Below, piece after piece: positions 1-12,646 of a stretch of DNA of 64,000 bases. Both the position numbers and the translations under genes were made by a program. The DNA lies in assembly GCA_045806965.1 (NCBI GenBank), contig JBJMIG010000059.1, forward strand, positions 2,656-66,655, read 5' to 3'. The notes beneath the pieces were generated by a model. It ran no database searches. It was not told where the DNA came from and saw only the letters and a program-made list of their open reading frames with translations. How positions within the stretch are numbered: the stretch's first letter is position 1; every line of letters begins with the position of its first letter. Source of the DNA: Labedaea sp. (GTDB lineage Bacteria; Actinomycetota; Actinomycetes; Mycobacteriales; Pseudonocardiaceae).

Positions 1-207
1 GGCCCGGCGAAACTCCCCGTCGGTGGCGGAGCGCAGGCCGACCTCGCGCTGCATGGCGACCACGTCGGAGATCGCCTCGTCCTCGACTTTCTTCAGCGCT
101 TCCGCGGTGATCCGTCCGGCCGCCCGGTCCGCCCGCGCGGCGTGCAGCGCGGCCGGTCGCAGCAGGCTGCCGACGTGGTCGGCACGGAACGGCGGGTTCT
201 CTCGCAT
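1..207 (-). CDS. cobalamin-independent methionine synthase II family protein (short MetE-like), 5' fragment truncated by the window edge
   Basis: Minus-strand ATG at 207, 5 nt after the pobA stop. Translation is MRENPPFRADHVGSLLRPAALHAARADRAAGRITAEALKKVEDEAISDVVAMQREVGLRSATDGEFRR, which fits the conserved N-terminus (PFRADHVGSLLRP ... TDGEFRR) of this family. High GC3. Confidence 0.7.
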   Translation of the reverse strand, partial: MRENPPFRADHVGSLLRPAALHAARADRAAGRITAEALKKVEDEAISDVVAMQREVGLRSATDGEFRRA

Positions 208-211
208 GGGG

Positions 212-1384
212 TCACGCTCCCTTGGGCAGTGGCAGTCCGACGTAGTTCTCGGCGAACGAGGTGGCCGCGGCGGTGGACGAGACCAGGTAGCGCAGCTGGG
301 CGAGCTGCACCCGGCGGGCGAACGGGTCGCCGTCCGGCGGCCGGTGCAGCATCGAGGTCATCCACCAGGAGAAGTGCTGTACTCGCCAGACCCGGCGCAG
401 GCACGTGTCGGAGTAGCCGTCCAGCCCGTCGGTGCGGCCGGTGCGGTACCACTCGTCGATCGCGCGGGCCAGCACCCAGACGTCGGCCACGGCGAGGTTG
501 AGTCCCTTGGCGCCGGTGGCCGGGACGATGTGCGCCGAGTCGCCGGCCAGGAACAGCTTGTCGTGGCGCATCGGCTCGACCACGTGGCTACGCAGCGCGG
601 TGATGCCCTTGTCCAGGATGGGACCGTCGGCCAGTTCGAAGCCGTCGTCGCGGGCCAGCCGGGCGCGCAGCTCCGCCCAGATCCGCTCATCCGGCCAGGC
701 CTCCAGCCGCTCGTCCGGCGCGACCTGTAGGTACAGCCGGGTGATCCGGGGAGTGCGCATGCTGTGCAGCGCGAAGCCGCGGTCGTGGCAGCTGTAGATC
801 AGCTCCTCGGCCGATGGCGGCGCCTCGGCCAGGATCCCGAGCCAGGAGAACGGGTACTCGTGGTCGTACGCGGTGACCGCGCCGGCCGCGACGGTGGTCC
901 GGCCGACCCCGTGGAACCCGTCGCAGCCGGCCACCAGGTCGGCGGCCAGCTCCTCGGTCTGTCCGTCGTGCTGGAACCTGACGGTCGCGGTGGCCGGGTC
1001 GATGGCGCTCGCCGATGCCTCGAACAGCACCGGCCCGCCGGCGGCCAGGCGGGCCGCGACCAGGTCCTTGACCAGTTCGTGCTGCGCGTAGATGGTCAGC
1101 TCGCGGCCGGTGAGGTCGGTCAGCGCGATCCGGTGCCCGACCCCGTCGAAGAGGAGTTCCAGGCCACTGTGGACCAACCGTTCGCGGCGCAACCGGTCGG
1201 CCAGGCCGACCTCGTCGAGCAGGTCGACCGTGCCCTGCTCGAGGACGCCGGCCCGGATGCGCCGCTCGATGTGGTCGCGGGACTGCCGTTCGAGCACCAC
1301 CGAGTCGATCCCGCGCAGGTGCAACAGGTGGGCGAGCAGCAGCCCGGCCGGACCGGCCCCGACGATCGCCACCTGGGTGCGCAT
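212..1384 (-). CDS. pobA: 4-hydroxybenzoate 3-monooxygenase
   Basis: 390 aa. FAD fold MRTQVAIVGAGPAGLLL and the GDSAHIVPATGAKGLNLAVADV motif typical of PHBH. The 516-aa track ORF is an upstream over-extension. ATG at 1384 overlaps the stop of the ABC ATPase (ATGA). Confidence 0.9.
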   Translation of the reverse strand: MRTQVAIVGAGPAGLLLAHLLHLRGIDSVVLERQSRDHIERRIRAGVLEQGTVDLLDEVGLADRLRRERLVHSGLELLFDGVGHRIALTDLTGRELTIYAQHELVKDLVAARLAAGGPVLFEASASAIDPATATVRFQHDGQTEELAADLVAGCDGFHGVGRTTVAAGAVTAYDHEYPFSWLGILAEAPPSAEELIYSCHDRGFALHSMRTPRITRLYLQVAPDERLEAWPDERIWAELRARLARDDGFELADGPILDKGITALRSHVVEPMRHDKLFLAGDSAHIVPATGAKGLNLAVADVWVLARAIDEWYRTGRTDGLDGYSDTCLRRVWRVQHFSWWMTSMLHRPPDGDPFARRVQLAQLRYLVSSTAAATSFAENYVGLPLPKGA

Positions 1385-2157
1385 CAGGTCCGCTCCAACT
1401 TGGCCTTCTGGATCTGGGCGTAGATCTGACCGCGCAGCTCGGTGAACCGCGGGTCGCCGCGGGTGGTCAGCTGGTCGCGCTCGTCCGGCAGGTTGATCTC
1501 CAGGTCGTCGGCGATCCTGGTGGGCGCGTGGGAGAGCACGATCACCCGCTGTCCCAGGTAGACGGACTCGTCGATGTCGTGGGTGACGAACAGGATGGTC
1601 ATCTCGAAGCGCCGCCACACCTGGCGGACCAGATCCTCGAGGTCCGCCCTGGTCTGCGCGTCCACCGCGGCGAACGGCTCGTCCATCAGCAGGACCCTTG
1701 GTTGGTAGGCGATGGCCCTGGCGATCGCCACCCGCTGCTGCATGCCGCCGGAGAGCTGCCACGGGTAGGCGGTGCGCGCGTCGGCCAGCCCGACCGCGGC
1801 CAGCGCCTCGGACACCTGCCGGCTACGTTGCGGCCCTGGCACCCCGGCCGCGCGCAACGGCAGCTCGACGTTCTGCGCCACCCGCAGCCACGGGAACAGG
1901 CTCCGGCCGTACTCCTGGAACACCACGGCGAGGTCCTTCGGCGGCCCCGCAACGGGTACGTCGTCGACCAGCACCGTGCCGGAGGTCGGCGGCAGCAGCC
2001 CGGCGATGCAGCGCAACAGCGTCGTCTTGCCGCAGCCGGACGGGCCGACGACGCAGGCGAACCGGCCGGGCGCCACGTCGAAGGTCAGGTCGCCGACCGC
2101 CTCGACGCGCCTGCCGTGGCCGTCGTAGACCTTGTGCAACCCACGAACCGAGAGCAT
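1384..2157 (-). CDS. ABC transporter ATP-binding protein, NitT/TauT (nitrate/sulfonate/bicarbonate) type
   Basis: Walker A GPSGCGKTT, signature LSGGMQQRV, Walker B LLMDEPF. Confidence 0.9.
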   Translation of the reverse strand: MLSVRGLHKVYDGHGRRVEAVGDLTFDVAPGRFACVVGPSGCGKTTLLRCIAGLLPPTSGTVLVDDVPVAGPPKDLAVVFQEYGRSLFPWLRVAQNVELPLRAAGVPGPQRSRQVSEALAAVGLADARTAYPWQLSGGMQQRVAIARAIAYQPRVLLMDEPFAAVDAQTRADLEDLVRQVWRRFEMTILFVTHDIDESVYLGQRVIVLSHAPTRIADDLEINLPDERDQLTTRGDPRFTELRGQIYAQIQKAKLERT

Positions 2158-2982
2158 CTACCGCTGCCTCTCCTGCCTGCGCACCCCGTGGTACCAGCCG
2201 AGTACCCGATGCTCCACCATCCGGAACAGCAGCGAGAGCAGCACGCCGAGCAGGCCGAGCAGCAGCACCCCGCTCCACATCTCGGGAATCTCGAAGCCGC
2301 GCTGGAACTGCACGACGGTGAAGCCGAGTCCGCTGCTCGCGGCGAACATCTCGCTGATCACCATGAGGATGATCCCGATGGACAGCGCCTGCCGCGCCCC
2401 GGTCATGATCTGCGGGCTCGCCGAACGCAGGATCAGGTGCCACAACCGAAACCGGCCGCCGATCCGGTAGCTGCGGCAGGTGTCGGCCAGCACCGCGTCG
2501 ATCGCCCGCACCCCTTCGACCGTGTTCAGCAGCACCGGCCAGACACAGCCGGAGACGATCACCAGAATCTTCATGCTGTCCCCGATGCCGGCGAACAGCA
2601 TCAGTATGGGTACCAGGACCGGCGGCGGAATGGCCCGGAGGAACTCCAACACCGGTTCGATCACCGCGCGCAGCACCTGACGCCGCCCGATCGCGACGCC
2701 CAGGCCGATCCCGACGGCCACCGCGATCAGGTAGCCGAGCAGCAACCGGACCACGCTCGGCAGCACATCGGTGCCGAGCCGGGGGCCGAACCAGGTGTCG
2801 CCGAACGCGGTCAGGATGTTGCGCAGCGACGGCAGGTAGAAGTTCGTGCTGCCATCGCTGGCGAACCACCAGACCAGCAGCAGCACCGCCGGCAGGCCGA
2901 GCACCAGCGCGCCTCGGTAGGCGACCCGCACCGCGACGGCCGTTCCCGGTGCCCGACCGGCCGGTTCGTTCGCGGCCGTCAT
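2158..2982 (-). CDS. ABC transporter permease (NitT/TauT type)
   Basis: Multi-TM protein with a BPD-transport-like core. Abuts the ATPase gene, and its ATG overlaps the upstream permease stop (ATGA). Confidence 0.85.
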   Translation of the reverse strand: MTAANEPAGRAPGTAVAVRVAYRGALVLGLPAVLLLVWWFASDGSTNFYLPSLRNILTAFGDTWFGPRLGTDVLPSVVRLLLGYLIAVAVGIGLGVAIGRRQVLRAVIEPVLEFLRAIPPPVLVPILMLFAGIGDSMKILVIVSGCVWPVLLNTVEGVRAIDAVLADTCRSYRIGGRFRLWHLILRSASPQIMTGARQALSIGIILMVISEMFAASSGLGFTVVQFQRGFEIPEMWSGVLLLGLLGVLLSLLFRMVEHRVLGWYHGVRRQERQR

Positions 2983-3758
2983 CAGACCGGCACCTCCTGG
3001 CGCACCGACGGATGCCAGGCCATGATCTGCCGCTCGGTGGTCCTGGTCGCCAGGTTCGCCAGCACTCCGATCAAGCCGGTCACCAACACCAGCGCGTACA
3101 TCGCCGGCACCGCGCCGCTGGACTGCGCCACCGCGATCTCCTTGCCAAGCCCGGGCGAGCCGATCACCAGCTCACCCGTGATGGTCAGGATCAGCGCGAC
3201 CGAGGCGGCCAGCCGGAAACCGGTGAGCGCGTAGGGCAACGCGGTCGGCCAGATCAGGTAGCGCACCGTCGGCCAGCGGCCGAGCCGGTAGGCCGCCGCG
3301 GTGTCCCTGGCCACCGGGTCCACGTCGGCGACCCCGTGCAACACCTGCACAAGCACCTGCCAGAACGACGCGTACACCACGAGCAGCAACGTTGACCGGA
3401 TGGTCGAGCCGTAGAGCAACACGGCCAACGGGATCAACGCCACCGACGGGATCGGCCGGAGGAACTCGACGGTCGACGCGGTGAGCGAGCGCAGCACCGG
3501 CACCGAGCCGATCAGCACGCCGAGCACGAGCCCGGCGCCGGCCGCGATCACCAGCCCCAGCGCCCAGGTGCGCAGCGTGTCGAGCAGCGCCGTCCAGAAG
3601 CGGCCGTCGCCAAGCTCCTTGGTGACGGCGACCAGAATCCGGTGCGTCGGTGGGGCGTCGTCCGTCGACACCAGGCCGAGGTAGGGCAGCACCTCCAGCA
3701 GCAGCCCGAAGCCGACCAGCCCGGTGAGGCCGTACAGCGCACGCGAGCCCGGCCTCAC
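2982..3758 (-). CDS. ABC transporter permease (NitT/TauT type)
   Basis: Paralogous multi-TM permease in the same operon. Confidence 0.85.
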   Translation of the reverse strand: MRPGSRALYGLTGLVGFGLLLEVLPYLGLVSTDDAPPTHRILVAVTKELGDGRFWTALLDTLRTWALGLVIAAGAGLVLGVLIGSVPVLRSLTASTVEFLRPIPSVALIPLAVLLYGSTIRSTLLLVVYASFWQVLVQVLHGVADVDPVARDTAAAYRLGRWPTVRYLIWPTALPYALTGFRLAASVALILTITGELVIGSPGLGKEIAVAQSSGAVPAMYALVLVTGLIGVLANLATRTTERQIMAWHPSVRQEVPV

Positions 3759-3795
3759 CGCACCTCCAGGCTCGCCGGGCCGGCTGGTCCGATCA

Positions 3796-4755
3796 TCATG
3801 GCAAGAGGGCGTTGAGATCGGCGGGCTTGCTCAGCAGACCGTCCTTCACCGCGAGATCGGACAGCGTCTGCACGGACGCCTTGTTGATGTCCGCCGGCCA
3901 CTTCGGCAGTGTCACCTTGGCGATCACGTCGGCGGTGATCTGGGTGTAGGTGCCGATGATCTGCCTGGCCTCGTCGGCGTGCGCGTCCGCGTAGGCCAGC
4001 GACTCCTTCATCGCCTCGGTGAACCGCTTGGCCAGGTCCGGGTTCTGGCCGAGCAGCTGGGTCGAGGTGAAGTAGGCGGCGACGGTCAGGTTGTCCGCGG
4101 CGTCCACGTAACTCGAGGCGATCTTGCGGCCGCCCTGGGCGAGCACCTGCTGCTGGAACGGCTCGACCACGAACACCGCGTCCACCTGCCCGGACTGCAA
4201 CGCGGCCGGCTGCTGCGGGAAGCCGAGCTCGACGAACTTCACCGCGGCCGGGTCGCCGCCGTCCTTGCGCACCGAGGCGCGCACGGAGGTGTCCACGATG
4301 TTCTTCAGCGTGTTCGCCGCCACCGTCTTTCCGGCCAGGTCCTTCGGTGTCTTGATTGGACTGTCCGCCTTGACCATCAGCGCGGCGAAGTCGTTGCCGT
4401 CCTGGCCGGTCGAGTTGTTCCCGTTGCACACGACCTTGATCGGCACGTTGCGGGACTGGGCGAGCAGCAGCGAGACCATGTTGCTGAAGCCGAACTGGTA
4501 CTGGCCGCTCACCACGGCCGGCACGATCGCCGCCCCGCCCTGCGCCAGTTCGAGCTTCAGGTTGATGTTGCGCTTGCTGAAGAAGCCCTTCTGGTTGCCA
4601 AGGTAGATCGGGGCCACATCGAGGATCGGGATCACCCCGACCGTCACGTTGTCCGGCTGGCCCGGGTTGGACGGGGCCCCCGCCCGGGTCGAACCGCAGG
4701 CGGAGGTGGCTAACAGGGTCGTCGCGAACAGGAGCGCAGCGAGGTTGCGTCGCAT
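3796..4755 (-). CDS. ABC transporter substrate-binding lipoprotein (NMT1/SsuA-like)
   Basis: Start moved to ATG 4755, which gives the lipoprotein signal MRRNLAALLFATTLLATSAC. The rest resembles sulfonate/nitrate-type binding proteins. Confidence 0.8.
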   Translation of the reverse strand: MRRNLAALLFATTLLATSACGSTRAGAPSNPGQPDNVTVGVIPILDVAPIYLGNQKGFFSKRNINLKLELAQGGAAIVPAVVSGQYQFGFSNMVSLLLAQSRNVPIKVVCNGNNSTGQDGNDFAALMVKADSPIKTPKDLAGKTVAANTLKNIVDTSVRASVRKDGGDPAAVKFVELGFPQQPAALQSGQVDAVFVVEPFQQQVLAQGGRKIASSYVDAADNLTVAAYFTSTQLLGQNPDLAKRFTEAMKESLAYADAHADEARQIIGTYTQITADVIAKVTLPKWPADINKASVQTLSDLAVKDGLLSKPADLNALLP

Positions 4756-4775
4756 CGTCGGGACTCCATCCAATT

Positions 4776-4790
4776 GTTCGCACAGCGCAC
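4776..4790. promoter_or_regulatory. candidate operator box 1, GTTCGCACAGCGCAC
   Basis: Imperfect dyad GTnCGC-N3-GCGnAC, 21 nt upstream of the binding-protein start codon. 14/15 identical to box 2. Confidence 0.5.
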
Positions 4791-4806
4791 GGATGTTCAG
4801 CAAATG

Positions 4807-4835
4807 AACGTAGGACTCCAGGCTGGCACCGTCAA
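4807..4835 (-). promoter_or_regulatory. candidate promoter of the ABC-pobA operon
   Basis: On the minus strand: TTGACG (complement of 4830-4835), 17 nt, TACGTT (complement of 4807-4812). Back-to-back with the pcaI -35 inside the palindrome GTCAACCTTGAC. Confidence 0.55.
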
Positions 4836-4837
4836 CC

Positions 4838-4866
4838 TTGACGCACAAGAATGGTCTCCCTACAGT
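4838..4866 (+). promoter_or_regulatory. candidate housekeeping-type promoter of pcaIJHGDCR
   Basis: TTGACG (4838-4843), exactly 17 nt, TACAGT (4861-4866). 44 nt upstream of the pcaI ATG. Confidence 0.6.
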
Positions 4867-4883
4867 GCGATTGAAGAACTTTC

Positions 4884-4898
4884 GTTCGCATAGCGCAC
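4884..4898. promoter_or_regulatory. candidate operator box 2, GTTCGCATAGCGCAC
   Basis: Same 15-mer with one mismatch, 12 nt upstream of the pcaI ATG and downstream of the predicted -10. Confidence 0.5.
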
Positions 4899-4909
4899 AC
4901 GGAGGGGCG

Positions 4910-5725
4910 ATGGCCGAGCTGGTCGAACTGGCCGACGGCATCGCGTCGCTGGTTCGCGACGGCGACACGGTGGCGCTGGAAGGGTTCACCCACCTGATCC
5001 CGATGCTGGCCGGCCAGGAGATCATCCGCGCCGGCCGGCGCGACCTCACCCTGGTCCGGATGACCCCGGACCTGATCTACGACCAGCTGATCGGAGCCGG
5101 TTGTGCGCGCAAGCTGGTGTTCTCCTGGGGCGGCAACCCCGGCGTCGGCTCGCTGCACCGGTTGCGTGACGCGGTACAGCACGACTGGCCGGCGCCGCTG
5201 GAGATCGAGGAGCACAGCCACGCCGGCATGGCCAACCGGTACGTGGCCGGCGCGTCCGGGCTGCCGTTCGCGGTCCTGCGCGGCTACGCCGGGACGGATC
5301 TGGTGGCGCACACCGACAACCTCGCGACCGTCACCTGCCCGTTCACCGGCGAGGTGTTGACCGCGGTGCCGGCGCTGCGCCCGGACGTCACGGTGATCCA
5401 CGCGCAGCGTGCCGACCGGCAGGGCAACGTCCAGCTCTGGGGTCTCACGGGAGTGCAGAAGGAGGCGGTGCTCGCCGCGCACCGGTCGCTGGTCACCGTT
5501 GAGGAGGTGGTCGACGAGCTCGATCCGCGTCCGAACGCGACCGTGCTGCCGGGTTGGGTGGTGACCGCGGTGGCCGTGGTCCCCGGCGGTGCCCGGCCGT
5601 CCTACGCGCAGGACTACTACGACCGGGACAACGACGCCTACCGCGAGTGGGACGCGATCAGCCGCGACCGCGACACGTTCTCCGCGTGGTTGCGCGCAAG
5701 TGTGCTGGACTCCGCCCGGTCATGA
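4910..5725 (+). CDS. pcaI: 3-oxoadipate:succinyl-CoA transferase subunit A
   Basis: ATG 4910 preceded by GGAGG. CoA-transferase family I alpha subunit (MAELVELADGIASLVRDGDTVALEGF...). Stop overlaps the pcaJ start (ATGA). Confidence 0.85.
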   Translation: MAELVELADGIASLVRDGDTVALEGFTHLIPMLAGQEIIRAGRRDLTLVRMTPDLIYDQLIGAGCARKLVFSWGGNPGVGSLHRLRDAVQHDWPAPLEIEEHSHAGMANRYVAGASGLPFAVLRGYAGTDLVAHTDNLATVTCPFTGEVLTAVPALRPDVTVIHAQRADRQGNVQLWGLTGVQKEAVLAAHRSLVTVEEVVDELDPRPNATVLPGWVVTAVAVVPGGARPSYAQDYYDRDNDAYREWDAISRDRDTFSAWLRASVLDSARS

Positions 5726-6492
5726 GCGAGCGGGCCACTACGCACTCGGCGGAGGAGATGATGACGGTGACGGCCGCCAGGGCCCTCGCCGGGCACACGT
5801 CCTGCTTCGTCGGCATCGGACTGCCGAGCACGGCGGCGAACCTGGCCCGCCGGCTGCACGCGCCGGACCTGGTGCTGATCTACGAGTCCGGCGCGATCGG
5901 CGCCAAACCGACCCGGCTGCCACTGTCCATAGGGGACGGTGAGCTGGCGGAGACCGCCGACGCGGTGATCACCGTGCCCGAGGTGTTCAACTACTGGCTT
6001 CAGCCCGGCCGGATCGACGTCGGCTTTCTGTCCGCCGCGCAGCTCGACCGGTACGGCAACCTGAACACCACCACGATCGGTCCGGACTACCGGCGCCCGG
6101 ACGTGCGGCTGCCCGGCGCGGGCGGTGCGCCGGAGATCGCCGCGTCCTGCCGGGAGGTGTTCCTGATGATCCGGCACAGCCGCAGGGCGTTCGTGGACAA
6201 GGTGGACTTCGTCACCTCGGTCGGTCACGGCAACGGACCTGGCAGCCGGGAGCGGCTCGGCCTCCGCGGCCGCGGACCGGTGCTGCTGGTCACCGACATC
6301 GGTGTGCTGGAACCCGATCCGGACAGCTGCGAGCTCACCCTGACCAAGCTGCACCCGGGCCGCACCCTCGCCGAGGCGCGCGCGGCGACCGGGTGGGACC
6401 TCGCCGTCGTCGACCCGTTGCCCCGGACCGAGCCGCCCACCCGCACTGAGTTGGAAGTGTTGCGGGCACTCGTGAAAGGAAGTTCGCCATGA
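5722..6492 (+). CDS. pcaJ: 3-oxoadipate:succinyl-CoA transferase subunit B
   Basis: CoA-transferase beta subunit (IGLPSTAANLARRLHAPDLVLIYESG). Coupled to pcaI and pcaH by 4-nt overlaps. Confidence 0.85.
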   Translation: MSERATTHSAEEMMTVTAARALAGHTSCFVGIGLPSTAANLARRLHAPDLVLIYESGAIGAKPTRLPLSIGDGELAETADAVITVPEVFNYWLQPGRIDVGFLSAAQLDRYGNLNTTTIGPDYRRPDVRLPGAGGAPEIAASCREVFLMIRHSRRAFVDKVDFVTSVGHGNGPGSRERLGLRGRGPVLLVTDIGVLEPDPDSCELTLTKLHPGRTLAEARAATGWDLAVVDPLPRTEPPTRTELEVLRALVKGSSP

Positions 6493-7196
6493 CCGACCTC
6501 GTGCTGCCCGGCTACCGGCGGCCGGGTGCGGACGTGCATCCGCTACTGCTCAGCCCGGACTACCGCTCGACGGTGCTGCGCGCGCCCGCGATGCCACCGC
6601 TGCCGCTGCCGCACACGCTGACCGAGATCACCGGCCCGGTGTTCGGCGAGGGGCGGGTGACCGCACGCGACGCCGATCTGACCAAGCAGGGCAACGGTGA
6701 CCCGCTCGGCGAGCGGATCATCGTGCACGGACGGGTGCTCGACGGGGACGGCCGGCCGGTGCCGAACACGCTGCTCGAGGTGTGGCAGGCCAACTCGGCC
6801 GGGCGCTACACCCATCAGTCCGACCAGCACCCGGCGCCACTTGACCCGAACTTCCCCGGCGTCGGCCGGTGCCTGACCGACTCCGACGGCTGGTATCGGA
6901 TCGTCACGATCAAGCCGGGCGCCTACCCGTGGCGCAACCACGACAACGCCTGGCGGGCGGCGCACATCCACTTCTCCCTGTTCGGCCGGGCGTTCGCTCA
7001 GCGGCTGGTCACCCAGATGTACTTCCCCGGCGACCCGCTGTTCTACCAGGACCCGATCTTCAACGCCGTGCCCGAGGTGGCCCGGCCGCGGCTGATCTCC
7101 CGGTTCGACCTGACCCGGACGGTTCCGGAATGGGCGCTCGGCTACCGCTTCGACATCGTGCTGCGCGGGCGCGAGTCCACCCCCATGGAGTCCTGA
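6489..7196 (+). CDS. pcaH: protocatechuate 3,4-dioxygenase beta subunit
   Basis: Intradiol dioxygenase motifs (LLEVWQANSAGRY, YPWRNHDNAWRAAHIHFSLF). Confidence 0.92.
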   Translation: MTDLVLPGYRRPGADVHPLLLSPDYRSTVLRAPAMPPLPLPHTLTEITGPVFGEGRVTARDADLTKQGNGDPLGERIIVHGRVLDGDGRPVPNTLLEVWQANSAGRYTHQSDQHPAPLDPNFPGVGRCLTDSDGWYRIVTIKPGAYPWRNHDNAWRAAHIHFSLFGRAFAQRLVTQMYFPGDPLFYQDPIFNAVPEVARPRLISRFDLTRTVPEWALGYRFDIVLRGRESTPMES

Positions 7197-7750
7197 TGAG
7201 CCTCGGGTTGACGCCGTCGCAGACGGTCGGGCCGTTCTTCTCGCATGCCCTGGTCTGGCCGGACGGCCCGTACGTGGTGCCGGAAGGTACGGCCGGTGCG
7301 TTCTGGCTCGGCGGTCTGGTGCTCGACGGCGCGGGCGCGCCGGTGCCGGACGCGATGGTGGAGAGCTGGCAAGCGGATCCGGAGGGGCGCTTCGCGCACC
7401 CGGACGACCCGCGCGGTGCGGGCCTGTCGTTTCGCGGCTTCGGGCGCTGTCCGACGGATGCGGCCGGCCGGTGGGCGATCCTGACCGTCAAGCCGGGTCG
7501 GGTGCCCGACCAGCGCGGGCAGCCGCAGGCGCCGCACCTCGACCTGTCGGTGTTCGCTCGCGGCCTGCTCGATCGGGTGGTGACCAGGGTGTACCTGCCG
7601 GACGAGACGGCCGCGAACGCGACCGATCCCGTCCTGTCCACAGTGGACCAGGCGCGCCGGGCGAGCCTGGTCGCCGTGCCGGACGGGGCCGGGCTGCGGT
7701 TCGACATCCGGTTGCAGGGCGCCGGGGAGACGGTCTTCTTCAACGTCTGA
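7196..7750 (+). CDS. pcaG: protocatechuate 3,4-dioxygenase alpha subunit
   Basis: Starts MSLGLTPSQTVGPFF at an ATG overlapping the pcaH stop (TGATG). The 293-aa track ORF is over-extended. Confidence 0.9.
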   Translation: MSLGLTPSQTVGPFFSHALVWPDGPYVVPEGTAGAFWLGGLVLDGAGAPVPDAMVESWQADPEGRFAHPDDPRGAGLSFRGFGRCPTDAAGRWAILTVKPGRVPDQRGQPQAPHLDLSVFARGLLDRVVTRVYLPDETAANATDPVLSTVDQARRASLVAVPDGAGLRFDIRLQGAGETVFFNV

Positions 7751-7763
7751 GAAGGGCTCGCCG

Positions 7764-8534
7764 ATGACCGTCACGCTCGCCTGCACGATGGACGGACCGC
7801 GGGACGCGCCGGTGCTCGTGCTCGGCAACTCCCTCGGCACCACCACGGCGATGTGGGAGCCGCAGCTGCCGGCCCTGGCGCGGCGGTTCCGGGTGGTGCG
7901 CTACGACCACCGGGGACACGGCCGCTCGCCGGTGCCGGACGGACCGTACCGGCTCGAGTGGCTCGGCGCGGATCTGCTCGCCCTGCTCGATTCCTTGGGG
8001 CAGCGCCGGGTACACCTGGCCGGGCTGTCCCTCGGCGGCATGGTGACCATGTGGCTGGCCGCGCACGCCCCGGAGCGGGTGGACCGGATCGCGCTGCTGT
8101 GCACCTCGGCCCTGCTCGGTCCGCCGCAGATGTGGGAGCAGCGCGCGGAGACCGTGCGCACCCGGGGCGTCGAGGCGATCAGCGACGTCATGGTCGGCCG
8201 CTGGTTCACCCCGGAGTTCGCCGTGACCAAGCCGGATCTCGTTGACTGGGCGCGCAAGCAGCTCACCGCGACCCCGGCGGCCGGGTACGCGGGCTGCTGC
8301 GCGGCGATCCAGACCATGGACCTGATCGCCGACCTCGACAAGATCACCGCGCCGGCGCTGGTGATCGCCGGAGCGCGGGATCCGGCGACGCCGCCGGAAC
8401 ACGCCGAACGGATCGCGACCGGGATCGCGGGCGCCCGGCTGGAGATCGTGCCCGATGCCGCACACCTGGCCAACATCGAGCAGCCGGCGGCGGTAACCCG
8501 CCTGCTGCTCGAGCACTTCGGAGGTGAGCAATGA
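7764..8534 (+). CDS. pcaD: 3-oxoadipate enol-lactonase (alpha/beta hydrolase)
   Basis: Alpha/beta hydrolase with nucleophile elbow GLSLGG. Sits between pcaG and pcaC. Confidence 0.85.
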   Translation: MTVTLACTMDGPRDAPVLVLGNSLGTTTAMWEPQLPALARRFRVVRYDHRGHGRSPVPDGPYRLEWLGADLLALLDSLGQRRVHLAGLSLGGMVTMWLAAHAPERVDRIALLCTSALLGPPQMWEQRAETVRTRGVEAISDVMVGRWFTPEFAVTKPDLVDWARKQLTATPAAGYAGCCAAIQTMDLIADLDKITAPALVIAGARDPATPPEHAERIATGIAGARLEIVPDAAHLANIEQPAAVTRLLLEHFGGEQ

Positions 8535-8911
8535 CCGAGCTGGACCGGGTCGGCGAGAACGTGCGCCGGGCGGTGCTCGGCGACGAGCACGTGGACAACG
8601 CGATCGCCACCGCGACGCCGTTCACCGCGCCGTTCCACGAGTACGTCACGCGCAGCGCCTGGGCGCAGGTATGGTCTCGGTCCGAACTGGACAGACGAAC
8701 CCGCAGCCTGCTCACCCTGGCCCTGCTCACCGCGCTGCGGGCCGAAACCGAGCTGGAGATGCACGTGCGGGTGGCGGTTCGGCTCGGGGTGAGCCCGGTG
8801 GAGATCAGGGAGACGCTGCTGCACACCGCGGTCTACGCCGGCGCGCCGGCGGCCAACGCGGCGTTCGCCGTCGCGGCGAGGGTGCTCGCCGAGCTCGGTG
8901 TGTCCACATGA
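8531..8911 (+). CDS. pcaC: 4-carboxymuconolactone decarboxylase
   Basis: 126-aa carboxymuconolactone decarboxylase fold (RSELDRRTRSLLTLALLTAL ... LLHTAVYAGAP). ATGA overlap with pcaD. Confidence 0.85.
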   Translation: MTELDRVGENVRRAVLGDEHVDNAIATATPFTAPFHEYVTRSAWAQVWSRSELDRRTRSLLTLALLTALRAETELEMHVRVAVRLGVSPVEIRETLLHTAVYAGAPAANAAFAVAARVLAELGVST

Positions 8912-9684
8912 AACCGCGCGGCCCGGACTTCGTGCAGTCGTTGGAACGCGGGCTTGCCGTGATTCGGGCGTTCGACGGCACCCGGCCGGAGCTGACCCTG
9001 AGCGAGGTCGCCGCGGCCACCGGCGTGACCAGGGCGGCGGCCCGGCGGTTCCTGCTGACCCTGGCCGAGCTGGGTTACGTGCGCGCCGACGGCCGGTACT
9101 TCTCGCTCACCGCACGGGTGCTCGAGCTCGGCTACGCGTACCTGTCCAGCCTGTCGCTGCCCGAGGTGGCCGAGCCGCACCTGGAGACACTCGTCGCGGA
9201 GGTCAACGAGTCGTCGTCGATCTCCGTGCTGGACGGCATGGACGTGGTGTACGTGGCCCGCGTGCCGACCAGCCGGATCATGACCGTGGTGATCAGCGTC
9301 GGCACCCGCTTCCCCGCGTATGCCACCTCGATGGGCCGGGTGCTGCTCGCCGGCCTGACCGAACCCGAGCTCGACGCCTATCTGGCCACCGTGAACCTGC
9401 GCCCGCTCACCACCCGCACGGTCTCGTCGGTGGCGGCGCTGCGCGGCGAGATCTCCCGGGTTCGGGCGCAGGGCTTCGCGCTGGTCAACCAGGAGCTCGA
9501 GGACGGCCTGCGGGCGATCGCCACACCGGTCCGCGACCGCACCGGCCGGATCATCGCCGCCCTCAACGTCTCCGCCAACGCCACCCGCACCTCGCTCGAG
9601 GTGATGCGCCGCGATCTGCTGCCACCCCTGCTCAAGACCGCCGCCCGGATCGAGGCCGACTTCTACGGCCGGCAGCGGCGCTGA
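8908..9684 (+). CDS. pcaR: IclR-family transcriptional regulator of the pca genes
   Basis: Starts MKPRGPDFVQSLERGLAVIRAF at an ATG overlapping the pcaC stop. IclR HTH plus effector domain. The track ORF from 8524 is over-extended. Confidence 0.8.
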   Translation: MKPRGPDFVQSLERGLAVIRAFDGTRPELTLSEVAAATGVTRAAARRFLLTLAELGYVRADGRYFSLTARVLELGYAYLSSLSLPEVAEPHLETLVAEVNESSSISVLDGMDVVYVARVPTSRIMTVVISVGTRFPAYATSMGRVLLAGLTEPELDAYLATVNLRPLTTRTVSSVAALRGEISRVRAQGFALVNQELEDGLRAIATPVRDRTGRIIAALNVSANATRTSLEVMRRDLLPPLLKTAARIEADFYGRQRR

Positions 9685-9694
9685 ACGCCGTCCG

Positions 9695-9812
9695 TTCACA
9701 GCGCAAGGTGACATTGCGCTGTTAGAACCGTAGGAAGGTCACCTTCCGCTGTATCGGCGGTCGAGCGCGGCGTCGGCTCGGCGGTACAGCGCAAGGTGAC
9801 ATTGCGCTGTAC
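9695..9812. repeat. composite palindromic repeat, locus R1 (3 hairpin cores)
   Basis: ACAGCGCAAGGTGACATTGCGCTGT at 9698-9722 and again at 9786-9810. Variant GGAAGGTCACCTTCCGCTGT at 9733-9752. Confidence 0.85.
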
Positions 9813-9909
9813 GTCGGCCACCGGCGGGTGGTGTCTTTCGCCCGGCGGTAGCAAGGACGACCTGTCCGGCGATGACATAAGCACAGATGCTGGCGCGCGA
9901 GGGCTGCCG

Positions 9910-12552
9910 ATGAGCACAGTGGAGCACGGTCACACCGCCGTGCTTGATCGACCCTGGCCGTTTGTCGGCCGCGAGCGCGAGCTTGCCCGGGTGGCGGCCG
10001 CCCTGGCCCGGCCGGACGCCGCCGGTCTGCTGTTCGCCGGGCCCGCGGGGGTGGGCAAGACCCGGCTGGCCACCGAGTGCGCCATGATCGCCGAGCGGGT
10101 CGGTTTCCGCACCGCCCGGGTGCTGGCCACCCGCGCCGCCGCCGACGTCCCGCTCGGCGCGCTGGCCCCGCTGCTGCCCGCGGACTCCCGGCGCAGCGGG
10201 CCGCACGGCAACTGGCTGCGGGCCGCCGCGGACGCGATCGCCGGCGGCCCGGACCCGCTGCTGCTCCTGGTCGACGACGCGCACCTGCTGGACAATGCCT
10301 CGGCCACGGTGGTTCAGCAGCTCGCCGCTCCCGACCGGGCGTTCGTGGTGCTCACCACCCGAACCGGGTTTCCGGCACCGGAACCCTTGCTGGCGCTGTG
10401 GAAGGACGCCATCGTCGAGCGTCTCGACCTCGCCCCGCTGACCAGGCGTGATGTCGACCAGGTGCTGGACAAGGTGCTCGGCGGCCCCATTGACGGAGCC
10501 GCCCGGCTCGAGCTGTTCCAGGCCAGCCAGGGCAACGCGCTGTTCCTGCACGAGCTGGTGCTCGGCGGGCTGGACACCGAGATCCTGCACCGCGCGCGGG
10601 GCGTGTGGCGGCTGACCAAGCGACTGGCCAGCTCGCCGCGGCTGATCGAACTGGTGCAGGCCCGGCTGGTCGACCTCTACCGGGCCGAGCGCGAGCTGCT
10701 TGAGCTGCTGGCCGTCGGCGAGCCGCTGCCGTGGGAGATCGTCGCCCGGTTCGCCGAGCCGGACATGGTGGACAAGCTGGAGCGGCAGAGCCTGGTGCAG
10801 ACCACCCAGCAGCGCAGCGGCCTCCAGGTGAGCCTGGCTCATCCGCTCTACGGCGAGGTGCTGCGCGACCAGCTGACCGCGCTTGGCCGGATGGCGACGA
10901 GCCGCCGGCTGGCTGAGGCGGCCGGCGGAGTCGAGCTGGACCGGGTCGGCGCCCTGCAGCTGGCCGTCTGGCAGCTCGACGGCGGCGGCACGATCGATCC
11001 GACGATCATGGTGGACGCGGCGAACGGCGCCCGCCGGGCCGGAAACCTGCCGCTGGCCGAGCGCCTGGCCACGGCCGCGGTCGACGCGGGCGCCGGGGTC
11101 ACGGCGGAGTTGTTGCAGGCCAAGGTGCTCGGTGAACGCGGTTGGCAGGAACGGGCCCAGGAGCTGCTGGCCGAGCTGGCCGGGCGGGCCGGCACCGACG
11201 AGGAGCGGATCGCGGTCACCATCGAGCGGGCCCGCGCGCTGCTCTACTGGCTCGGCCGGGGTGCGGAGGCGGCCCAGACCCTGGACGATGCGGCCGAACC
11301 GCTCACCGGAGCACTTCTCGACCAGCTCAACGCGCACCGCGGCCTGATCGCGTTGATGCGCGGCCGGATCGCCGACGCGCTCAGCACGGCGACCGGCTCG
11401 GCCGGCACGGCTGGCACGACCGCCCCTGGGCGCGGGTACGCCACCAGCGCGGCCACCGCCGCGGTGGCCGCGGCGCTCGCCGGGCAGTCGGCCCGGGCGA
11501 CCGCCTACGTGGAACGAGCCGAGCACGGCCGGGAGCCGGGCCGCGCCCGGCTGGCCCAGATCGTGACGCTGATCGAGTCCGGCCGGCTGGCCGAGGCGGA
11601 CACCGCCGCGACGGTGCTCTACGACCGGTCGCTGCAGGTGCGCAGCCGGACCGGGCAGGCCTGGGTGGCGATGCTGCGCGGCCGGCTCGAGCTGCTCACC
11701 GGTCAGCTCGGCCGGGCCGAGCACGCCTTCGCCGAGGGCGCCGCGATCGCCGCCGAGATCGGCCAGCTCGCGCTGCGCCGGTGGTGCGCGGCCGGAATCG
11801 CGCTGGCCGCGAGCCAACGCGGGGACCTCACCCGGACCAGGTCCGCGATCCAGGAGCTGGACGCGTTGCCGGACACCGACCTGCACCTGCTCGCCGCGGA
11901 CGAGTTCCGGGCCAGGGCGTGGGCCGCCATGCTGACCGGGAAGCTCGCGCGGGCCAAGGAGTTGCTCCGCGAGGGGGCCGAGTCGGCCCGGCGGGGCGGG
12001 ACCGCGGCGCTGGCCGCGGCCGCCTGGCACGACCTGGCCCGGCTCGGCGACCCGGAAGCCGCCAAGCCGCTGGTGGAGCTGGCCACCAGGCTGGACAACC
12101 CGCTGATCGCGGCCCGCGCCACCGCGGTCGGGGCGATGATCGACCACGAGCCGGACCGGCTGGCCGAGGCCGCGGGGCGGTTCGAGGCGATGAGCGCGCT
12201 GCTGCTCGCCGCCGAGTCGAGCGCCGCGGCCGCCGGCGAGTACCGGCGCCGGCAGGACGGCCGGGCGTCGGACCGGATGGCCGACCGGGCGCATCTGCTG
12301 TCCGACCGCTGCGACCGGGCGCACACGCCGGGCCTCACGCTCGCCGGTCCGGTGGCGGAGTTGACCAGCCGGGAGCGGGAGATCGCCGCGCTGGCCGGGA
12401 CCGGCAGCTCGAACCGGGAAATCGCCGACGCGCTCACCGTCTCGGTGCGTACCGTGGAAACACATCTGCAACGTGTGTACACCAAGCTGGGGGTGACCAG
12501 CCGGACCGGACTGGCCAGCGTCCTACGTACCAGGGGGCACAAACCTACGTAG
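9910..12552 (+). CDS. large ATP-binding LuxR-family (LAL/MalT-like) transcriptional regulator
   Basis: ATG 9910 after GAGGG. Walker A GPAGVGKTRLA near the N-terminus. C-terminal LuxR HTH (LTSREREIAALAGTGSSNREIADALTVSVRTVETHL). Confidence 0.8.
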   Translation: MSTVEHGHTAVLDRPWPFVGRERELARVAAALARPDAAGLLFAGPAGVGKTRLATECAMIAERVGFRTARVLATRAAADVPLGALAPLLPADSRRSGPHGNWLRAAADAIAGGPDPLLLLVDDAHLLDNASATVVQQLAAPDRAFVVLTTRTGFPAPEPLLALWKDAIVERLDLAPLTRRDVDQVLDKVLGGPIDGAARLELFQASQGNALFLHELVLGGLDTEILHRARGVWRLTKRLASSPRLIELVQARLVDLYRAERELLELLAVGEPLPWEIVARFAEPDMVDKLERQSLVQTTQQRSGLQVSLAHPLYGEVLRDQLTALGRMATSRRLAEAAGGVELDRVGALQLAVWQLDGGGTIDPTIMVDAANGARRAGNLPLAERLATAAVDAGAGVTAELLQAKVLGERGWQERAQELLAELAGRAGTDEERIAVTIERARALLYWLGRGAEAAQTLDDAAEPLTGALLDQLNAHRGLIALMRGRIADALSTATGSAGTAGTTAPGRGYATSAATAAVAAALAGQSARATAYVERAEHGREPGRARLAQIVTLIESGRLAEADTAATVLYDRSLQVRSRTGQAWVAMLRGRLELLTGQLGRAEHAFAEGAAIAAEIGQLALRRWCAAGIALAASQRGDLTRTRSAIQELDALPDTDLHLLAADEFRARAWAAMLTGKLARAKELLREGAESARRGGTAALAAAAWHDLARLGDPEAAKPLVELATRLDNPLIAARATAVGAMIDHEPDRLAEAAGRFEAMSALLLAAESSAAAAGEYRRRQDGRASDRMADRAHLLSDRCDRAHTPGLTLAGPVAELTSREREIAALAGTGSSNREIADALTVSVRTVETHLQRVYTKLGVTSRTGLASVLRTRGHKPT

Positions 12553-12646
12553 TCCGCGCTGACGACGCCGGTCCCCCCGGATGGTCTGCTATGGACGCCG
12601 GCACCGCACAATTGTTCTTCCGCGAACGAGGGAGCGACTCAGGGGA

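Follow-up and report, generated by a model that had tools for sequence, protein, structure and literature searches.

The window (the whole 64,000-nt stretch of DNA analysed) belongs to the 5.97-Mb assembly of an actinomycete with a G+C content of 70%; the assembly comprises 106 contigs and is 85% complete. Genomes and MAGs of Actinophytocola (Pseudonocardiaceae) are the nearest named relatives of its pca locus. Two divergent operons are found at this locus (Table 1). The minus-strand operon contains genes for a NitT/TauT-type ABC importer and pobA, and the plus-strand operon contains pcaIJHGDC and ends with pcaR, which encodes an IclR-family regulator. The operons are separated by an intergenic region of 154 nt (4756-4909), lying between the start codons of the binding-protein gene (ATG at 4755, minus strand) and pcaI (ATG at 4910). 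An earlier note on this DNA had described the region as a mirror-symmetric divergent promoter with duplicated operator boxes; the limits of the region and the positions of all the listed motifs were confirmed.

Table 1. Features of the divergent importer/pobA and pca operons, in window coordinates
Feature	Position	Strand	Remarks
Importer/pobA operon	212-4755	-	Predicted target: binding protein, two permeases, ATPase, pobA
pobA, 4-hydroxybenzoate 3-monooxygenase	212-1384	-	578 bits
ATPase	1384-2157	-	
Two permeases	2982-3758 and 2158-2982	-	
SsuA-like binding lipoprotein	3796-4755	-	
Composite operator, importer/pobA promoter	4776-4809	-	15 + 4 + 15 = 34 bp; 42.9 bits
Box B, minus-side operator	4776-4790	-	GTGCGCTGTGCGAAC on the minus strand; about +12 to +26; invariant alignment columns
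Box A, minus-side operator	4795-4809	-	GTTCATTTGCTGAAC on the minus strand; overlaps the -10 and the predicted start
Predicted -10, importer/pobA promoter	4807-4812	-	TACGTT; 17-nt spacer; TA invariant in 10 aligned relatives
Predicted -35, importer/pobA promoter	4830-4835	-	TTGACG; GTCAA invariant in the alignment
Predicted -35, pca promoter	4838-4843	+	TTGACG; conserved in the alignment
Predicted -10, pca promoter	4861-4866	+	TACAGT; 17-nt spacer; 9/12 match; TA invariant
Composite operator, pca promoter	4865-4898	+	34 bp; 44.9 bits
Box A, plus-side operator	4865-4879	+	GTGCGATTGAAGAAC; overlaps the -10 and the predicted start
Box B, plus-side operator	4884-4898	+	GTTCGCATAGCGCAC; about +11 to +25
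pca operon (pcaI-pcaJ-pcaH-pcaG-pcaD-pcaC)	4910-8911	+	Predicted target
pcaI	4910-5725	+	
pcaJ	5722-6492	+	
pcaH	6489-7196	+	
pcaG	7196-7750	+	
pcaD	7764-8534	+	
pcaC	8531-8911	+	
pcaR, last gene of the pca operon	8905-9684	+	IclR family; predicted binder; TIGR02431
LAL/LuxR-type regulator gene	9796-12552	+	Directly 3' of pcaR

The gene content around the operons varies among relatives. The LAL/LuxR-type gene next to pcaR recalls Corynebacterium glutamicum PcaO, the activator of pcaHG. This adjacency was observed, among relatives, only in the two closest, the Actinophytocola MAGs L030 and L031, whose PcaR proteins are 86-88% identical. No separate pcaHG promoter was found at the locus studied here, and the LAL gene has no evident separate target. 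The gap between pcaG and pcaD measures 13 nt in the window (7750-7764) and approximately 1.1 kb in both of these MAGs. In L030, a pcaB-like ORF of the lyase family, recognised solely from its similarity to an ORF of L084, occupies the gap (7649-8860); the pcaB-like ORF between pcaG and pcaD of the closest relatives is absent from the window. In other Actinophytocola loci, pcaIJHG is followed directly by pcaR, and the content of the operon is thus variable within the genus.

The sequence of the intergenic region is best read as two predicted promoters of the sigma-70 type standing back to back, with their -35 hexamers 2 bp apart, a layout that is highly probable as part of the PcaR-operator explanation as a whole. 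On each side, TTGACG is followed by 17 nt, a TAnnGT element fused to a 15-bp box (box A), 4 nt and another 15-bp box (box B). The hexamer pairs of the earlier note were thus recovered on both strands. The plus-strand promoter was the sole promoter-like site detected in a scan of 4400-5300, where 0.1 was expected. The minus-strand -10, TACGTT, is weak relative to the E. coli consensus; it fits TAnnnT, but was rejected by the scanner, failing its 4/6 rule for the second hexamer. Transcription is predicted to start near 4873 on the plus strand and near 4801 on the minus strand.

The centre of the region, GTCAACCTTGAC, had been called a palindrome. It does contain the back-to-back -35 hexamers, as an inverted repeat CGTCAA-CC-TTGACG (4830-4843) with 6-nt arms, but the palindrome is imperfect because the CC at its centre is non-symmetric. 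The gap between the two hexamers is CC, CCG, CCCA/CCCG or GCG among relatives, and because this spacer varies, the element is interpreted as two independent -35 hexamers rather than a dyad operator. A recent inverted duplication was rejected as the source of the symmetry, since the two halves agree in their functional elements only and not in the spacers.

The earlier note took as its operator unit a single 15-mer present in two copies, GTTCGCACAGCGCAC (plus-strand reading of 4776-4790) and GTTCGCATAGCGCAC. These copies are identical at 14 of 15 positions; when the 154-nt region was shuffled 20,000 times, such a direct repeat arose in only 4 of the shuffles. The unit, however, proved to be a pair of boxes spanning 34 bp, and the fourth box, GTGCGATTGAAGAAC at 4865-4879, had been overlooked. 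A dyad GTTCA-N5-TGAAC (GTTCAGCAAATGAAC in plus-strand letters) had been noticed at 4795-4809; its position and its overlap with the minus-strand -10 stand, but rather than an additional element it represents box A of the minus-side operator. This operator consists of the box at 4776-4790, GGAT and the box at 4795-4809, and with the fourth box included the two halves of the region are functionally symmetric. Each operator covers approximately -9 to +26 relative to its predicted start.

In type, each operator consists of two 15-bp GTKCG-N5-CGMAC-type boxes with 4 nt between them. Operators of IclR group 1 are defined by a 15-17-bp dyad GTNCG-N5-6-CGNAC (TGTYCRY-W3-RYGRACA), the former being the IclR consensus (PMC8222616). 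The boxes at 4776-4790 and 4884-4898 fit this consensus in the form GTTCGC-N3-GCGCAC. The box A copies keep GTKC...GAAC and have lost part of the CG core.

The pair of operators stands out in the genome. A composite weight matrix of 34 columns was built from relatives only, with this genome left out; as it includes same-genus sequences, the scores of the window (44.9 and 42.9 bits) are not fully independent, and the next best site among 11.9 million positions scored 17.3 bits. The exact 15-mer, with C or T at position 8, has no other copy in the whole 5.97-Mb assembly, where base composition gives an estimated expectation of approximately 0.04. Further exact copies, for which the earlier note had suggested a search, for example upstream of pcaB and pcaF, were not found in the whole assembly. 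The four matches with one mismatch and the top single-box matches were set aside as mostly coding (with high third-position GC) or as belonging to other IclR systems. A third site at 9714-9728, in the gap between pcaR and the LAL gene (three mismatches), was rejected as part of a repeated hairpin element, and a GTTC-N6-GAAC near 12610 was rejected for its wrong spacing and lack of a composite score. One single box, GTTCGATATTCGAAC (contig C44, 70552-70566), lies immediately 5' of a gene starting MPYYRRVGELPRKRHTQF, which by eye resembles homogentisate 1,2-dioxygenase and has an IclR-like gene approximately 2 kb away; from this context, the box is probably an HmgR-type operator.

The genes pcaB and pcaF were sought by tblastn in the organism's own assembly, and no convincing example of either was found in this 85%-complete sequence. 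The only pcaB candidate (contig C4, 136055-137407) was rejected: its highest score, 603.8 bits (cutoff 650), was obtained for nitrosuccinate lyase, it reached 354.3 against the pcaB cutoff of 355.75, and it stands alone, with no PcaR box upstream. For pcaF, the best thiolases are approximately 43% identical to true PcaF. A thiolase on contig C95 scored 361 against a cutoff of 597, and no thiolase in the assembly reached the pcaF cutoff. Neither a composite nor a convincing single site was found before the candidate pcaB and pcaF genes.

The composite arrangement is conserved at pcaR loci. When the sequences upstream of pcaI were compared among 20 relatives, the box adjacent to the ribosome-binding site was always accompanied by a second 15-bp box 4 nt upstream, which completes the -10. 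The module TTGAC-17/18-TAnnGT, fused to box A and followed after 4 nt by box B, occurs upstream of pcaI in approximately 18 of 21 relatives. In a wider survey of 80 loci retrieved with PcaR, a composite site scoring 25 bits or more was found no further than 300 nt upstream of pcaI in 43 of the 52 pcaI-bearing loci (29 of these with two sites), and a site was found within the same distance of the start of the leftward binding-protein gene in 29 of 34. Among 71 distinct sites, 48 show a TA in the place of a -10 joined to box A; in 40 of these 48, a -35-like hexamer precedes it at 17-19 nt (17-18 nt in all but one case). An alignment of 10 sequences showed the four boxes, the TA of both -10 elements and both -35 hexamers as invariant columns among drifting spacers. 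Looping between the two operators was rejected, since in relatives they lie anywhere from 84 to 191 bp apart and keep no common phase.

These conservation data also bear on chance similarity within an AT-richer intergenic region. The frequency of the 15-mer with three mismatches in the window (10, against 7.75 expected from shuffles, hence no enrichment) would suit this explanation. However, no exact copy exists elsewhere in the genome, the repeat is rare in shuffles, and the deep conservation across relatives is held to refute it, so that its likelihood is negligible.

The same sites allow a role in RNA to be judged. The boxes could act as leader hairpins by the ribosome-binding sites and influence translation or stability, each box being an imperfect dyad within a predicted 5' untranslated region and the plus-strand leader folding to -12.6 kcal/mol. 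The box hairpins themselves, however, reach only -1.4 and -1.7 kcal/mol, the z-scores of the leaders (-1.56 and +1.24) are unremarkable, an Rfam search gave no match, and box A lies partly upstream of the predicted start. Within box B, complementarity was kept in 29 of 69 sites at positions 3/13 and in 24 of 69 at positions 6/10; positions 1, 2, 4 and 5 and their partners are fixed letters, indicating that sequence and not pairing is conserved. An RNA role is accordingly given hardly any credence.

Two further groups of loci were noted in the survey. In seven Actinoplanes/Paractinoplanes loci (L075, L077, L082, L086, L100, L101 and L107), pcaR itself is the divergent neighbour of the same ABC importer, and the importer-pcaR gap contains one strong, importer-oriented composite operator of 35-46 bits. 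PcaR loci with 68-77% PcaR identity also occur in MAGs labelled Limnocylindrales/Chloroflexota and Solirubrobacterales (L040, L052-L054, L085, L103 and L106). Composite operators of at least 25 bits are present in L040, L052, L103 and L106, and no composite site reaching 22 bits was found in L053, L054 and L085. The presence of these loci in such MAGs suggests horizontal spread or mis-binning.

Which protein binds the operators? The product of pcaR scored 336.4 bits against TIGR02431, the curated PcaR/PcaU/PobR model (cutoff 284.75), with residues 7-252 aligned to profile positions 2-247 of 248. Full-length matches were obtained to 2IA2 (E = 1e-88), to Pseudomonas putida PcaR (8EJU, E = 1e-60) and to IclR (1MKM, E = 2e-25), and these solved homologues show an N-terminal winged helix-turn-helix and a C-terminal IclR effector domain in the protein. 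Its recognition helix, TRAAARRFLLTL, shares 11 of 12 residues with the helix of 2IA2, the homologue from Rhodococcus RHA1. The PcaR encoded in cis is very probably the binder of both operators. The proposal of the earlier note that one IclR-type PcaR serves both operons is thus very probably right, given the TIGR02431 assignment, the fit of the motif, the co-occurrence with pcaR and the precedent of R. opacus.

Another IclR-family protein might bind the boxes instead, either a PobR or a PcaR/PobR-like paralogue that is encoded on contig C95 and is 46% identical to PcaR (274 bits, against the TIGR02431 cutoff of 285). Boxes of the GTTCG-N5-CGAAC type are generic for IclR group 1, and single boxes occur elsewhere, for example before the homogentisate dioxygenase gene. 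Against this, the composite accompanies pcaR in many families, also at loci where pcaR is its immediate neighbour, and Rhodococcus genetics assign both promoters to PcaR. The paralogue belongs to a different catabolic cluster, in the first 9 kb of which no composite site was found. A different IclR-type binder is therefore very unlikely. In the C95 cluster (76-5700), an HpaB-like monooxygenase (assigned by eye from the tail of its sequence) lies upstream of the PcaR/PobR-like gene, which is followed by the thiolase and then, as judged by eye, by an apparent maleylacetate reductase and an apparent intradiol dioxygenase. The cluster may encode a hydroxyquinol pathway and could also supply the thiolase step that is missing.

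In all likelihood, PcaR represses both operons from the two composite operators, by occlusion of the -10 and start combined with a downstream block; binding, oligomeric state, start sites, the sign of regulation and the effector are predictions within this scheme. Box A would supply the last bases of the -10 and cover the start, with box B at approximately +11 to +26. Each operator is predicted to hold a dimer of dimers (one tetramer) of PcaR, which would block RNA polymerase either at open-complex formation or at the exit from that complex. In the absence of substrate, the importer/pobA operon and pcaIJHGDC-pcaR would both be off, until a pathway metabolite frees PcaR from the operators. By analogy, this metabolite may be beta-ketoadipate or an earlier intermediate. 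As pcaR lies inside the operon that it would regulate, negative feedback on its own expression follows. PcaR, PcaU and PobR of Proteobacteria are activators, and the sign of repression is therefore drawn from the position of the operator and from actinobacterial precedents: an operator lying over the predicted -10, the predicted start and the first 25 transcribed bases could not activate.

The earlier note favoured a pure roadblock, in which PcaR binds only the two downstream 15-mers and halts the elongating polymerase while the dyads overlapping the -10 elements remain idle. The box B copies are indeed the best conserved and most similar elements, and they lie at approximately +11 to +26 of the predicted starts. 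However, box A is equally conserved and always 4 nt from box B, it overlaps the -10 in 48 of the 71 distinct sites, and the composite scores far exceed every single-box match in the genome. Moreover, IclR repressors have been described as occluding polymerase or blocking the progression of the open complex (bioRxiv 10.1101/2023.07.27.550818). A pure roadblock is thus considered unlikely. Since the first box lies over the predicted -10 and start, promoter occlusion describes the proposed mechanism better, and the downstream box would add an obstacle to escape.

The type of switch is already known and well conserved, and it is not a new kind of regulation. What actinobacterial PcaR gains is a precise operator model, 15 + 4 + 15 bp fused to the -10; previously, knowledge of this regulator came from genetics in Rhodococcus and from a 15-bp motif in Corynebacterium. 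There is about an even chance that the paired operators mark a conserved actinobacterial PcaR regulon in which a NitT/TauT importer with an SsuA-like protein, and not a PcaK-type MFS permease, is dedicated to the uptake of 4-hydroxybenzoate or protocatechuate. The back-to-back layout, with 2-4 bp between the -35 hexamers, might couple uptake to catabolism, the promoters either competing or firing together. On this evidence, a sulfonate/nitrate-type ABC importer would be firmly linked to the hydroxybenzoate/protocatechuate regulon in many soil Actinomycetota, a link that aids annotation and may be of use in lignin-valorisation chassis or biosensor design.

Among the closest known systems is PcaR of Rhodococcus opacus PD630, in which deletion of pcaR derepresses both divergent promoters, PpcaI and PpcaH (PMC9582017). 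The two systems share a regulator gene inside the pca operon, divergent promoters, a single repressor and negative autoregulation. The control described in that paper is genetic, and binding sites were left undefined. The R. opacus, R. jostii and related loci were fetched via the homologue 2IA2, and the R. opacus/R. jostii pca intergenic region was found to contain two 15 + 4 + 15 composite sites, scoring 28.6 and 21.0 bits with the same matrix. Rhodococcus PcaR is approximately 62% identical to that of the window. Unlike at the locus described here, where the importer/pobA operon faces pcaIJHGDC-R, the divergent partners in Rhodococcus are pcaIJ and pcaHGBDCRF, and the orientation of the sites suggests a different promoter layout.

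In C. glutamicum, as tabulated in PMC8222616 (after Brinkrolf 2006), PcaR has the motif GTTCGC-N3-GCGAAC, which the window boxes match at 11 of 12 specified positions. It is likewise an IclR-type repressor, acting on pcaIJ and pcaFDO through a 15-bp box with the same core. However, pcaHG is there under the separate LAL activator PcaO, whereas pcaHG and pcaIJ form one operon here.

P. putida PcaR and Acinetobacter baylyi PcaU and PobR belong to the same subfamily (TIGR02431) and share the box type (KTCGATWATCGSAY) and multi-box sites. P. putida PcaR binds DNA as a dimer of dimers (bioRxiv 10.1101/2023.07.27.550818), placed over the -35 and -10, and at its own promoter it acts as a repressor at -20 to +4. 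In contrast to the repression proposed here, these proteins are mainly activators at pathway promoters, and their sites consist of three boxes (an inverted and a direct repeat) instead of two full dyads 4 nt apart. The IclR repressors of the TtgV type resemble the predicted mechanism in that a tetramer on an operator of approximately 40 bp overlapping the promoter excludes polymerase and is released by an effector, but they control another regulon (an efflux pump), respond to a different range of effectors and bind operators of different sequence.
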